Shown one piece after another: positions 12,498-18,861 of a stretch of DNA of 64,000 nucleotides. Within the stretch, counting starts at the first letter, position 1; every line of letters begins with the position of its first letter. The notes below the pieces were generated by a model, which was not told where the DNA came from, searched no databases, and was given only the letters and a program-made list of their open reading frames with translations. The stretch is taken from positions 512,001-576,000 of the forward strand of contig CAWHHI010000011.1 in NCBI GenBank assembly GCA_963829055.1, given 5' to 3'. The DNA comes from an uncultured Gemmatimonadaceae bacterium. Lineage in GTDB: Bacteria > Gemmatimonadota > Gemmatimonadetes > Gemmatimonadales > Gemmatimonadaceae. The position numbers and the translations under genes are program-made.

Positions 12498-13764
12498 GTG
12501 GCCGCACTCCATACCGCCGTCGCTGCGCCTGTTCGGCAGCGCTCCACTCGAGGCGACCGGGACGTCCGTCGAGCAATTCCTGCTTCTTCTCGCGGTCATC
12601 CTCGTTGCCGCGAAAGTGCTCGGTGAGCTCGCGGAGCGCATCGGTCAGCCGGCCGTCGTTGGAGAGCTCCTCGCCGGTGTGATTCTCGGCCCGTCTATCC
12701 TGGGCTTCGTCGACCCCACGCTCCCGTCGCTCCACCTGCTCGCTGAGATCGGCGTCGTGCTGCTGCTCTTCGGCATCGGCCTCGAGACAGATCTGAAGCG
12801 ACTCATGAGCGTCGGCGGCGCTGCATTCACCGTCGCGGTCGTCGGCGTGGTCCTGCCATTCGCGGCGGGATTCGGTGTCGCGCGCGGGCTCGGCCTCGAA
12901 CTACTTCCTGCCATCGTCGCCGGCGCGGCGCTCACGGCGACGTCGGTCGGTATCACCGCGCGCGTGCTCTCCGACCTCGGTCAGCTCAAGAGCGTCGAAG
13001 GCCAGATCGTACTCGGCGCCGCCGTCATCGATGACGTTATCGGCCTCGTGATCCTGGCCGTCGTCAGCGACCTCGTCGCAGGGAACGCACCGAGCGTGCT
13101 CGGAGTGCTGCGCACCACGGGCATCGCGTTCGGCTTTCTCGCGGCGGCGCTGCTGCTCGGCCGCGTCATCGTGCCCCCGCTGTTCTCACTCGTAGCACGC
13201 ACGGGGAAGGAACACACACTCGCGTCGATGGCCCTCGCACTCGCGTTTCTGCTCGCGGTGGCAGCCTCCGAAATCGGCTCGGCGCTCATCGTCGGCGCGT
13301 TCGCGGCGGGGCTCGTGCTCGCGCCAACAGAGCATGTGCACGTCATCGAGCGCGGCATCATCCGGCTCGCGAACGTGTTCGTGCCCATCTTCTTCGTCGC
13401 TGTCGGCGCGGCGGTCGACGTGCGCACGTTCGGGTCGCGCGACGTCCTCATTGTCGGGTTCGCACTCACGGCCGTGGCGATCGTTGGAAAGTTCGCGGCC
13501 GGATTCGCGCCCGTATGGATCAAGGCGAACAAGACGCTCATCGGCGTCGGCATGATCCCACGCGGTGAGGTCGGCCTGATCTTCGCGCAGACCGGGTTGA
13601 CTGCCGGCGTGATCGACGCGGGCGAGTACAGCGCGCTCATGCTCATGGTGCTCGTGACCACGTTCATCGCGCCCCCACTGCTCCGCCAGCTCATCTCGAA
13701 GATGGCCGGCGCGACGCGTGATACCGACATTGGCGCGGTCGGCGAGATGACCACGGAAGCCTGA
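12498..13764 (+). CDS. CPA2 (Kef/NapA-like) cation:proton antiporter; start uncertain (GTG 12498 needs a frameshift; ORF track starts at 12616)
   Basis: GQPAVVGELLAGVILGP, LLFGIGLETD, ATSVGITARVL, AAVIDDVIGL, GMIPRGEVGLIFA. A hydrophobic helix continues in frame upstream of 12616. Confidence 0.9.
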
Positions 13765-13799
13765 CCTGGTCCGCTGGTATCCACCTAGTATTCACCGCC

Positions 13800-15599
13800 A
13801 TGATCGCAGAGTCCTTCACCGCGACCATCGCACTCATCGGTATCGTCATTCTCGTCGCGTCGCTGCTGTCGGGCGCCGTCGAGCGGACTGGCATGCCGCA
13901 GGTCGCGATCTTTCTCCTCCTCGGCGCCGTACTCGGCCCGATCGGGCTGAACCTCTTCGACCTCGCCCTGGATTCGCCCGCGCTCCACGCGATCGCGACG
14001 CTCGCGCTCGTGCTGGTGCTGTTCAGTGACGCGATCTCCATCGACCTGCGAGAAGTCAAACGCAATTCCCGCCTCGCGCTGCTCGTGCTCGGACCGGGGT
14101 CGCTCATTCCAGCAGTGCTCATCGCCGTCGCGTCCCGGTACCTGCTCGGCCTCCACTGGGCGGCATCCGCGATCGTCGGCGCCGCACTCGCGTCAACCGA
14201 TCCCGTCCTGCTTCGCGGGCTGCTGCGCCGGCAGGACGTGCCTGCGCAGGCACGGCTCGCGCTGCGGCTCGAGAGCGGGATGAACGACGTGGTGCTGCTG
14301 CCCATCGTCGTGTTGAGCATGCTGTTCCTTCCTGGCCTGCCTGCTGGCGTGCATCCAAGCGCAGCCCGGCTCGCACTCGGGCTCCTCATCCTCGGACCGG
14401 GCGCAGGCGTGTTGGCCGGGCTGGTGGGCATCACGCTGCTGGATCGTATTCGCAAGAGCGTCGGCGTCCGACGAGACTACGAATCGCTGTACGCACTCGG
14501 CGTCGCGTTCACGGCGTTCGCCGCCGCCGAGGCGGCAGGTGGCAGCGGATTTCTCGCGGCGTTCGCGGCAGGAATCACCGTTGCTGCTCTCGACGTGGAG
14601 CTGTGTGACTGCTTCCTGGATTACGGCGAAGCAACGGCGGAAATGTTCCTGCTGCTCACGTTCGTGGCGTTCGGCGCGTCGCTGATCTGGCAGGGGCTCA
14701 GCATCGTGAGCTTGCGGAGCCTGACGTTCGCGTTCTTCGCGCTCATCATCCGCACCCTCGTGCTGTTCCCGGTGCTGAAGCGCGCCGGCCTGGATCGGCG
14801 GAGTCTGCGCATTGTGGCGTGGGTCGGCCCGCGTGGACTCAGCACGCTGTTGCTGGTCCTGCTCCCGGTGTTCGCCGGCATCCCAGATAGCGCACAATTG
14901 TTCACGATCTGCTGCCTCGTCGTGCTCCTGTCCGTGCTTCTGCACGGCAGCGCGATCGGCCTGATCGTGCGTCGGCCTCAGCCCGCGCCGGGCGCGGCCA
15001 TCAATCCTGCTTCCGCGTTAGGTGCATTGGCGCCGGGCGCGCCGCCACTGGCAGCGAAAGCCCCGACGCCAGCGCTCGAGGTTATCCCGCCACTCGCGAC
15101 AGAGGCGGCGCTCGCGGCAAAGCCGGCAACCGAGACACGGGATGCGGTCGCGGCGAAACCAGCGCTCGACGGAACACCGCAGGACACCGCCGCTGAGCAG
15201 GCCGAGCCGCCGATCCCCGAGAAGATCACCATCGACGAGATGCAGGCGATGCAGAGCGCCGGCGAGACGCCACTGGTGCTCGACGTTCGGACGCAACGCA
15301 CCTACGAAGCCGATCCGTTCATTGCGCGTGGCGCGGTGCGCTTACCGCCCTTGGATGCGGTGCGCCTCGCGACGGCGCACCGCATCCCGTGGAAGGCGAC
15401 GCTCGTCGCCTACTGTGCCTGAAAGAACGAAGAGACAAGCACCCGTGTGGTGCGAGAGCTGAGACGAGCCGGTTGGAAGCGAGCCCGCGCCCTCAAGGGC
15501 GGGTGGGCCGAGTGGCGTGCGCGCAACCTGCCGGTCGACCCGGCGGAGCCTAACGAGTTGGAGCCTCAGTCGCCCTCGGCGCGACCGAACATCAGGTGA
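13800..15599 (+). CDS. CPA1/NhaP-type cation:proton antiporter fused to a rhodanese-like domain, with probable selenocysteine at UGA 15420-15422
   Basis: LASTDPV, RLESGMNDVV, WVGPRGLST antiporter motifs. Rhodanese VLDVRT...LVAYCA-[TGA]-KNEETSTRVVRELRRAGWKRARALKGGWAEW continues in frame to TGA 15597-15599. Confidence 0.85.
15439..15453 (+). promoter_or_regulatory. Candidate bacterial SECIS hairpin
   Basis: GCACC-CGTGT-GGTGC stem-loop; loop starts 21 nt after the UGA and has G at loop position 2. Confidence 0.55.
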
Positions 15600-17049
15600 A
15601 TCAATGGTCGGTCCTCCGTGCGGGCGAACACGTACACGTGGTCGCCCGCCGTGATCGTCGTGTCTCCCTTCGGCGGCACGACGTCCTGCCCGCGGACGAT
15701 CAATGCCACCGACGCACCGTCGGGAAACGGGAGATCGGCCAGGGACACGCCGGCGACGGCAAGCGCCTCGTCGACGTAGAACGACATCAGCTCGCCGTTG
15801 AGCGGCTGCATGGACTCGATCTCCAGCACCGCCGGCGGAGCAGGCGCTTCATTCGTGCCGAGGCCGAGTCGTCGCGTTACCCAGCCGACGGTCGTTCCCG
15901 GTACCAGCGCGTTGATGACGACGATGAAGAACACGACGTCGAAGATGCGCAGCGAGCCCGGCGCACCCGCCAGCACGGGGATCGTCGCGAGAATGATCGG
16001 CACGGCCCCGCGAAGTCCGACCCATCCGATGTACGCGACTTCCCGCGCGCGATACCCGAATGGGAGGAGACACAGCCAGACGACGAGAGGCCGCGCGACT
16101 ACGGCAAGAAACAGCGCGAGCGCGAGCCCAATGCCGGCGACGTCGAACAGCCGTGACGGAAACACCAGCAATCCGAGCACGAGGAACATCACCACTTGCC
16201 CGAGCCACGCGAGCGCGTGGTGTACGCGGAGCAACCCGGCGCGGTACGGCAGCGGGCCGTTGCCGAGAATCAGCCCCGTGACGTACACCGAGAGGAAGCC
16301 GCTGCCGTGCAGGATCGTCGGCACGCCGAACGCGAGGAATGCGATCGCCGAGCGTGAGCGCCGGATAGAGTCCTCCGCCCGGCAACTTGACGCGCCGCAA
16401 CAACGCACGACCGCCGTATCCGAACGCCACGCCAAGCGCGCCGCCGACGACCATCTCGACGACGAACTCGAGCGGCAGATTCCAGTACGATGCGTGACCG
16501 CCGCTCGCGAGTTGCGCGGTCAACGCGGTCGTCAGCATCACGGCGACGGGATCGTTGATGCCTGATTCGACCTCGAGCGTGACGCCGACGCGCCGCTTGA
16601 GGTGAAGGCCGCTTCCACGCAGAACGGAGAACACCGCGGCGGCGTCTGTGGACGACACGACCGCGCCAAGAACGAGCGCCTCCGTCCACGAGAAGCCGAG
16701 CACGTGGCCCGCCGAGCGCAATGAGCGCGGTGGTGCCTAACACACCGACCGTGGCCAGCACTCCCGCCGGCTTTGCCGTCTCGCGCACGGCATCCATCGG
16801 CGTGTGCAGACCGCCGTCGAACAGGATGAGCACGAGCGCGACGGTGCCGAGCCGGAACGCGACCGCGTAATTCTCGAACGCGATGCCGCCGATGCCCTCG
16901 GAGCCGGCGAGCACGCCGATGAGCAGGAATGCCAGGGCTACCGGGACCGCGAAGCGTTCCGCGGCCCGGCTGAAGATGATGCTCAGCGCCAGCAGGACGC
17001 CGAACGTCGTGAGGAGGAGCGCGGTCGCCAGCGGCTCGGTGCCAGTCAC
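15566..17049 (-). CDS. cvrA: K+/H+ antiporter CvrA/NhaP2 with C-terminal TrkA-C (RCK_C) domain, frameshifts near 16715 and 16350
   Basis: GSEGIGGIAFEN, LILFDGGL, SSTDAAAVFSVLR, LEVESGINDP, WVGLRGAVPIILA, ALIVRG...GDHVYVF. Confidence 0.88.
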
Positions 17050-17916: not shown

Positions 17917-18861
17917 CTACGGCTTCACCGCCGATGGCAGCTGAACCATCGGCATCGCGTTGCCCGTTACCTGCGGCATTTGCCCGTTCCAGCGCTTCGC
18001 CATCTCGTACTGCACCAGATTCGCCGTCACACTCGCTGACAGGAGCAGATTCGCCTTGGCCTGCGCTTCGGCCTCCGCGAGAATCGCCTTCGCGCGACCC
18101 GCCGCCTTGATCGAATCGCCCTGCGCCTGGAACTGGTTCTTCTGCAGTTCGTTCTGCGCCGTGAGCGCCTGCTGTTGCATCACGTTCTTCGTGTTGATCG
18201 CGTCGATGACGCCCTGCGGCGCGCGCAGCTCGTTGATCGTGAACTGCTTGACGACGATCCCGTAGGGTGCGAGCCGGTCCGAGATCCGCCCCTGCGTCTT
18301 GTTCACCACCTCGGCCTTCTTCGGCCCGATGACGTCCGCGATCGGCTCGGTGCCCACGACCTCCTGAAGCGCCTGACGAATCGACTGCTTCACATACCCG
18401 TGCTGGATGGTCGCGATGTCCGTGCGGAACGTCTGGTAGAGCGCCGGCACACGCGTCGGGTCGAGCTCGAACGACATGGACACGTCGAGCGAGATCGGCT
18501 GCCCTTCCACGCTGTTGACGTTGATCTCGTCGTTGCCCCGTGAGCCCTCATTGTTCCCGCGCGTCAGCACGAGCGTCTGCATGTACACCGGGTACTCCTC
18601 GATCTGACTGAGGATGCGGGTTCCGCGGATGCAGCCCGGGCCGAGTGGCGTGCGATCCACGCCGCCGCCGGCGCGATGGATCAGGATGCCGACATGTCCA
18701 GGATTGATGTACGTGACCGTCGAGGGCAGGAGCACGAGCAGCAGAATGAGCGCGGCCGCGGTGAACAACAGCCGACCAATCTTCGTTCCGAAGCTGGACC
18801 CACGATCGCCGCGCATGCCACCACGAATGGTACCGAGGCGATCGCCGATTGAGCTCTCCAC
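17917..18861 (-). CDS. SPFH/Band-7 (prohibitin-like) membrane protein
   Basis: TM anchor, INPGHVGI, IEEYP, coiled coil AEAEAQAKANLLL, RWNGQMPQV; GGAG RBS upstream. Confidence 0.9.
   Translation of the reverse strand: MESSIGDRLGTIRGGMRGDRGSSFGTKIGRLLFTAAALILLLVLLPSTVTYINPGHVGILIHRAGGGVDRTPLGPGCIRGTRILSQIEEYPVYMQTLVLTRGNNEGSRGNDEINVNSVEGQPISLDVSMSFELDPTRVPALYQTFRTDIATIQHGYVKQSIRQALQEVVGTEPIADVIGPKKAEVVNKTQGRISDRLAPYGIVVKQFTINELRAPQGVIDAINTKNVMQQQALTAQNELQKNQFQAQGDSIKAAGRAKAILAEAEAQAKANLLLSASVTANLVQYEMAKRWNGQMPQVTGNAMPMVQLPSAVKP

Follow-up and report, generated by a model that had tools for sequence, protein, structure and literature searches.

A Gemmatimonadaceae Antiporter Gene with an In-Frame UGA That Is Almost Certainly a Selenocysteine Codon of a C-Terminal Rhodanese Domain

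Gene Structure

The window analyzed here is a stretch of 64,000 nucleotides (nt) from an uncultured Gemmatimonadaceae bacterium (GenBank assembly GCA_963829055.1, contig CAWHHI010000011.1, positions 512,001 to 576,000 of the forward strand), and all positions below count from its first letter. It contains an antiporter gene of the CPA1 (NhaP) type that is interrupted by an apparent stop codon. On the plus strand, an open reading frame (ORF) at 13800..15422 encodes 540 amino acids (aa) with the C-terminal residues ...LVAYCA and is then closed by TGA at 15420-15422. Past this TGA, the frame remains open for 58 more codons (KNEETSTRVVRELRRAGWKRARALKGGWAEWRARNLPV...) up to another TGA at 15597-15599, which brings the total to 599 aa. 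An initial annotation of this DNA had proposed that the product is a cation:proton antiporter of about 599 aa that contains selenocysteine (Sec) in a CxU rhodanese domain, and the coordinates it gave for the end of the ORF, for the 58-codon extension and for a hairpin beyond the TGA each agree with the window sequence. From the ORF, the Pfam matches and the orthologue alignments, we delimit the full candidate selenoprotein gene at 13800..15599 on the plus strand (599 codons), with UGA(Sec) as codon 541 and the TGA at 15597-15599 as the terminal stop. The comparisons among orthologues indicate that the TGA at 15420-15422 is almost certainly a Sec codon.

The identity of this codon can be read in independent sequence data. 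In one DNA study (X3), a 695-nt contig over 15003-15697 covers the codon, and in a second DNA study (X4) it is covered by the contigs 14900-15423 and 15394-15458. From an RNA-seq library (X15), a 151-nt contig at 15333-15483 spans both the codon and the hairpin with no differences from the window. The initial annotation had called for a check of TGA against TGC or TGT at this site; the independent contigs carry TGA, and no variant is listed at 15420-15422 in any of the X3, X4 and X15 contigs, which neither prove transcription nor exclude rare variants.

Conservation of the UGA Codon and of the Frame beyond It

To find relatives of the gene, we searched with the whole protein, reading through stops, in 61 related genomes and in a sample of 301 from the phylum. 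Close orthologues were found at 27 loci, including that of the window itself, with 54-74% identity, and TGA is present at the same column in all 27 of them (26 of 26 without L046, which comes from the unpublished genome G102). A second scan, with one genome per species and the patterns [LV]DVELCDC and EMFLL[LF]TF, kept 80 loci out of 392 relatives, a set that overlaps the first one. Among these 80 loci, 78 have TGA at the column (four of them were missed by the regular expression and identified by eye), one has TGC (Cys), and one reaches the end of its contig before the site.

Conservation also continues beyond the codon. In an alignment of seven orthologues, the invariant residues after the UGA are E544, T546, S547, R549, V550, R552, E553, R555, A557-W559, A562-L565, G567-W569, W572 and P578, and the similarity and the stop positions of the orthologues part ways only beyond '...GLPV'. 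A TGA, or an alternation of TGA and Cys, with conservation past the codon was the pattern by which the initial annotation had proposed to judge the case, and it is the pattern that both searches returned. Because the TGA, the downstream frame and the hairpin are all conserved in every orthologue examined, chance can be excluded as an explanation of their combination.

The single TGC belongs to locus L145 of a Capsulimonadaceae metagenome-assembled genome, the only Cys-form orthologue found (50% identity). It shows the same fusion order, with TGC at the Sec column in F-C-T-C-P-N-D-E-T-S, and further on (4507 onward) it has a second tandem rhodanese with C-S-C-P-D-D-K-T-S. No hairpin is found after the TGC codon in this locus. 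The initial annotation had named a Cys motif YCxCPNE-x-S for DedA-fused rhodanese domains, with the UGA at the place of the second Cys, and the FCTCPNDETS of this antiporter-fused orthologue matches it.

The 65 relatives in the protein database have lengths of 357-540 aa, all are matched by PF00999 only, and none is longer than the UGA position. Of those fetched, 23 out of 24 end in ...YCA, and all 65 lack the final ~58 residues as well as half of the rhodanese domain. Gene callers cut the whole family at the UGA codon, as was foreseen in the initial annotation, which had expected pipelines to call a truncated protein. The family is widespread and systematically mis-annotated, and corrected gene calls would change the selenoproteome counts for soil bacteria.

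The 392 relatives are mostly from Gemmatimonadota, together with contigs labelled delta-proteobacterial, Binatia, Thermoanaerobaculia and Chloroflexota. On a membrane-domain tree, the 2,580-nt contig of L074, labelled Chloroflexota, falls within a Gemmatimonadales clade that is well supported and includes L067 and L068. The contig may have been mis-binned, and phylum counts by record title need care.

Recoding Signal and Selenocysteine Genes

The sequence GCACC-CGTGT-GGTGC at 15439..15453 (plus strand) can fold into a hairpin of the type of a Sec insertion sequence (SECIS), with the stem GCACC/GGUGC and the loop CGUGU at 15444-15448. The stem begins 16 nt and the loop 21 nt past the UGA, and the latter distance is the one given in the initial annotation. 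Bacterial SECIS elements are recognized by a usual window of distance from the UGA and by a G in the loop. In a set of 79 hairpin sequences (75 distinct), 375 of the 375 cells of the stem of 5 base pairs (bp) are paired, and the 27-sequence set gives the same picture. Compensatory changes are seen at three of the five pairs: C-G to U-A twice, G-C to A-U 12 times and C-G to U-A once. Changes on both sides of a pair occur in 15 cells, compared with 0-3 in controls in which the partner was slid by 1-3 columns.

Each switch between G-C and A-U entails coupled Thr/Ala and Val/Ala replacements in the protein, and the nucleotides that flank the hairpin are nearly invariant at synonymous sites. We mapped the G-C/A-U state on a quick maximum-likelihood tree of the membrane domain with 74 rows, from which L086, L087, L102 and L141 (missed by the regular expression) and L121 (short upstream frame) were left out. 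By parsimony the state changes 8 times on this tree; when only well-supported branches are counted, the minimum is 3 changes. The covariation thus supports the SECIS-like hairpin that had been suggested from the window sequence. A possible lower stem (15429..15462, plus strand), formed by 15429-15433 with 15458-15462, was rejected as part of the element: 77-80% of its cells are paired, no compensatory change is seen, and it is largely unpaired in the window. RNAalifold proposes 3 of the lower-stem pairs.

The initial annotation had asked for selA, selB, selD and tRNA-Sec in the genome, and all of them were found, with selB apparently frameshifted in this assembly. In profile searches of the genome, selA scores 464.6 bits, selD 360.5 bits (G000 C16:625102-626214, locus L010) and selB 314.9 bits versus a cut-off of 242 (G000 C16:758145-760002, locus L002). 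The selD gene has its own in-frame TGA, in '...CAG-U-ASK...'; the hairpin 16 nt downstream of it resembles that of the antiporter gene in its loop of 5 nt, CGGGC, and a tRNA-SeC(tca) lies immediately downstream of selD. A scan of the whole genome for a TGA and a 5-bp hairpin with the loop CGKGY in an open frame returned 57 candidates, among which only the antiporter gene and selD resemble real coding sequence; no further selenoproteins were found by this TGA and CGKGY scan. In the phylum sample, SelA is present in 24 of 24 carrier genomes versus 242 of 301 in the background, a difference that speaks for consistency only, as the genomes are kin.

Rhodanese Domain and CxU Site

The rhodanese domain (residues 478-574; 15231..15521, plus strand) matches Pfam PF00581 with an E value of 4e-8 and 34 bits versus a cut-off of 22.2, over profile positions 2-101 of 102. 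The match spans the UGA, and full coverage of the profile is obtained only when the UGA is read through. In an AlphaFold2 model, which was built from a 34-sequence alignment, the predicted local distance difference test (pLDDT) values are 89-97 over the whole domain, the UGA position included. U541 aligns with the loop Cys of the solved rhodanese 6mxv (U-K-N-E-E-T-S versus C-G-G-G-F-R-S), and therefore Sec would be at the canonical catalytic position. C539 is located two residues N-terminal of it in the motif Y-C-A-U; this alignment and the conservation of the TGA define the CxU motif C539-A540-U541 (15414..15422, plus strand), with 15420-15422 as the putative Sec codon.

The best rhodanese match in NCBIfam is NF041203 (rhodanese_LYCAU, rhodanese-related (seleno)protein), at residues 475-580 with an E value of 5.5e-23 and 81 bits for the protein and 77.9 bits for the genome; the rhodanese domains of the orthologues score 75-81 bits. 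The two share the Y-C-A-U motif and the Sec at the catalytic loop position. The [L/A]-Y-C-A-U motif of the family is represented by VAYCAU in the window and by LYCAU, VYCAU, AYCAU and FCAU in orthologues. However, NF041203 models a stand-alone protein of ~126 aa, a format that is not matched here, where the domain makes up residues 475-580 of a 599-aa fusion and forms the C-terminus of an antiporter with 13 transmembrane (TM) helices. By its profile match, the domain is a relative of NF041203 and no called member of it. In a profile search, no stand-alone NF041203 member above the cut-off was found in the genome of the window or in 60 relatives.

Membrane Domain, Linker and Cys-Asp-Cys Motif

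The membrane domain (residues 20-391; 13857..14972, plus strand) matches the Na_H_Exchanger family, PF00999, with an E value of 1.4e-42 and 146.4 bits over profile positions 3-374 of 375. The features of CPA1 membership are present, namely a full-length family match, a 13-TM NhaP-like architecture and the TD, ND and R motifs. The motifs ASTDP (131-135), ESGMND (158-163) and GPRG (343-346) are invariant in 34 family sequences. Among solved structures, PaNhaP (4cz8/4cza, E value 1.6e-11) is the closest relative, and the TDP, ES..ND and GPRG motifs align with it; the residues of these motifs presumably have the ion-binding roles assigned to them in the PaNhaP literature.

The AlphaFold2 model of the whole protein (mean pLDDT 79.5, predicted template modeling score 0.78) has 13 membrane helices and, C-terminal to them, an Ala/Pro-rich linker (residues 399-466; 14994..15197, plus strand) that is predicted to be disordered (pLDDT <50) and whose length differs among the seven aligned orthologues. 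With the N-terminus placed outside, Lys and Arg residues number 20 in the inside loops and 3 in the outside loops, and the rhodanese domain is therefore predicted to be cytoplasmic.

The family alignment and the topology also place an invariant Cys-Asp-Cys motif, C269-D270-C271 (14604..14612, plus strand), at the predicted cytoplasmic start of TM10. It is present in 34 of 34 aligned family members; its conservation cannot be counted in the 80-locus set, for which [LV]DVELCDC served as the search pattern. Among 18 paralogue loci that lack rhodanese, for which 17 alignments extend across this site, 2 likewise have CxC here, and there is no rhodanese within the flanks of the loci with CxC. C-D-C was accordingly rejected as an exclusive, rhodanese-specific partner. 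The paralogues L061 and L063 (33% identity, ORFs of 423-430 aa, without rhodanese) have C-S-C or C-E-C at the C-D-C position, which hints at a wider antiporter subfamily that bears CxC.

Comparison with Described Proteins

The CxU rhodanese is known as a type. It is 'form 3' in PMC13188914 and the same type is 'COG0607 form 2' in PMC9312934, and it is given in both as a predicted selenoprotein. The initial annotation had known of no description of the fusion. The antiporter fusion is apparently undescribed in print; the Sec-rhodanese domain type is already known (NF041203; 'form 3 CxU' in PMC13188914). The word 'antiporter' is absent from PMC13188914 and PMC9312934, and a literature search, which was judged by listings and had subscription journals and supplements outside it, found no paper describing the fusion of a Sec-rhodanese to a CPA1 (NhaP-type) antiporter.

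PMC13188914 also lists TsoB, a rhodanese/DsbD fusion-like selenoprotein ('form 5', NF045694). In TsoB, too, a rhodanese selenoprotein is fused to a membrane-protein module. However, the partner is DsbD-like, the motif is UxxxxU and there are two Sec residues. The transporters in the selenoprotein table of a 2026 review are limited to a putative mercuric transport protein, an E1-E2 ATPase and an ABC permease subunit. The fusion would add a secondary-active ion exchanger to these few selenoprotein transporters and would link selenium biochemistry to pH and cation homeostasis.

Antiporters of the PaNhaP and MjNhaP1 type (4cz8, 4cza) share the TDP, ES..ND and GPRG motifs and the 13-helix architecture with the window protein, but they are without a C-terminal rhodanese and without Sec, and the C-D-C lies outside the aligned PaNhaP regions. 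The K+(Na+)/H+ antiporters of the NhaP2/CvrA type likewise combine a CPA1 membrane domain with a C-terminal cytoplasmic regulatory domain, which is a ligand-binding TrkA_C in their case and a Sec-rhodanese here. The fusion also offers a defined target for the question of why Sec rather than Cys persists at a rhodanese active site.

Interpretation and Alternatives

The alignments demonstrate a single gene with a UGA that is evidently decoded, a covarying hairpin, a predicted Sec at the rhodanese catalytic site and a predicted cytoplasmic location of that domain. The explanation that best accounts for the data as a whole, and which we regard as highly probable, is that of one Sec fusion gene of 599 residues that comprises a CPA1 antiporter, a linker and a cytoplasmic Sec-rhodanese and whose UGA is recoded by SelB via the hairpin; a role as a sensor is graded separately. 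The proposal of a Sec-containing antiporter with a CxU rhodanese is upheld by the conserved TGA, the downstream conservation, the covarying hairpin and the Sec genes.

Several observations weigh against this explanation. The NF041203 score of 81 bits is under the curated cut-off of 115 bits. The hairpin is short, with 5 bp, and an Rfam scan of 15300-15650 with E values up to 10 returned no SECIS family and only three chance matches to microRNA or small RNA families. The selB gene lies in two frames in this assembly (model positions 1-344 and the C-terminal winged-helix 509-579), which reflects either an assembly indel or a broken gene. It is in a single frame in G005, G009 and G053, and the split of selB, taken together with that of a neighboring antiporter gene, suggests indel errors in the assembly.

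As to function, we infer, with somewhat less than even confidence and partly by analogy, that the Sec domain may control ion exchange by sensing redox state, sulfur or electrophiles in the cytoplasm. The initial annotation had likewise suggested that redox or sulfur/selenium chemistry may gate the transport. The antiporter, with its ion-binding motifs kept, would exchange Na+ or K+ for H+, and the tethered Sec-rhodanese would be its regulatory sensor. Oxidants, reactive sulfur or selenium species or electrophiles would convert the very nucleophilic selenolate of U541, paired with C539, to a selenenylsulfide or an Se-S(n) adduct, and this change would alter the exchange activity, possibly through the invariant cytoplasmic C269-D-C271. 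Such logic would be akin to the gating of KefC by thiol chemistry and to the TrkA_C regulation of the neighboring NhaP2-type antiporter. KefC and KefB are glutathione-gated K+/H+ antiporters of the CPA2 subfamily, in which a C-terminal domain in the cytoplasm senses thiol chemistry and thereby sets the activity; the sensor is a KTN/RCK domain to which glutathione adducts are bound non-covalently, and no selenium is involved. We regard this as a functional analogy only, with members of another CPA subfamily, and claim no homology.

The main competitor to a sensor is a working sulfur or selenium transferase, in which the rhodanese would process a membrane-side chalcogen substrate, be it thiosulfate, polysulfide, selenite or selenide, and substrate or coupled protons would be supplied or removed by the CPA-fold domain, by analogy with pairs of transporters and sulfur carriers. 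Sec coincides with the catalytic position in a rhodanese loop of six residues, which would suit such an enzyme, and so would the two tandem rhodanese domains of the Cys-form orthologue L145, an arrangement shared with many sulfurtransferases; moreover, the domain belongs with the CxU rhodanese selenoproteins that reviews file under sulfurtransferases (PMC13188914, PMC9312934). On the other hand, the membrane domain retains the canonical CPA1 cation-binding motifs, the active-site loop is acidic, not cationic, and no sulfur or selenium metabolism genes were seen adjoining the gene, the neighbors of which are two antiporters, an SPFH protein and unrelated enzymes. We consider a transferase unlikely, at perhaps a quarter of the weight.

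A more specific form of the regulatory sensor is more doubtful still. The protein would be the first selenium-gated ion exchanger, with the tethered Sec-rhodanese as a covalent chalcogen sensor whose C539/U541 pair swaps a selenenylsulfide or persulfide with C269-D-C271 at the mouth of TM10. Oxidants, reactive sulfur or selenium species or electrophiles would in this way turn Na+ or K+/H+ exchange on or off. If this were true, Sec would be the basis of a protective circuit of the Kef kind, genomically paired with a nucleotide-gated NhaP2 antiporter. Two observations count against a regulatory mechanism: the active-site loop U-K-N-E-E-T is acidic, unlike the anion-binding loops of sulfurtransferases, and CxC is not exclusively tied to the Sec domain, as the 2 of 18 paralogue loci without rhodanese show.

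It is very improbable that the UGA is read through as a residue other than Sec, be it Cys via a tRNA-Sec-like tRNA or Trp or another residue by near-cognate suppression. Comparative data reveal readthrough and cannot identify the inserted residue, and selB looks frameshifted in this assembly; yet the genome has selA, selD of the Sec type and a tRNA-Sec whose anticodon is UCA, the conserved hairpin is the signature of SelB-dependent decoding, homologues have a catalytic Cys at this position, the family is curated as one of selenoproteins, and TGA also terminates the same gene at 15597-15599. Least credible of all is a genuine stop, which would leave a truncated antiporter and make the frame beyond it a decaying remnant, a pseudogene or a sequencing error. 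In its favor, this is how all 65 relatives are annotated by gene callers, and there are apparent frameshifts elsewhere in this assembly. The comparative data already contradict it: 58 codons stay open, more than 20 residues are invariant across genera with identities of 54-74%, and TGA is found in 27/27 and 78/80 loci. The independent contigs carry the same TGA, and the truncated product would, in the model, break off partway through a beta-strand of the rhodanese fold.

Neighboring Genes

Three genes of the Na_H_Exchanger family stand in a row in the window, over 12616-17049, with the fusion gene in the middle. The upstream one (12616..13764, plus strand) encodes an antiporter of 382 aa that matches PF00999 with an E value of 4.3e-64. 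The downstream one (15566..17049, minus strand) is a convergent NhaP2-type antiporter gene with TrkA_C, whose product shares ~28% identity with the fusion protein. The gene is divided among three frames, and its Pfam matches fall on three ORF pieces, which separately cover profile positions 4-91, 98-202 and 215-374 plus TrkA_C. Its homologue is in a single frame in the closest relative, L066, with net single-base differences near 16,715 and 16,348, and the split copy is either a pseudogene or the product of an assembly indel. A TrkA_C antiporter is adjacent to the fusion gene in 42-44 of the 80 loci (L066-L145), either convergent downstream or divergent upstream. The read-through coding sequence shares 34 nt (15566-15599) with the convergent antiporter gene, at the 3' end of the latter, and the truncated call would leave a gap of 143 nt. 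Further downstream, at window 17917-18861, is an SPFH/Band 7 gene, which is found nearby in 10 of the 80 loci.

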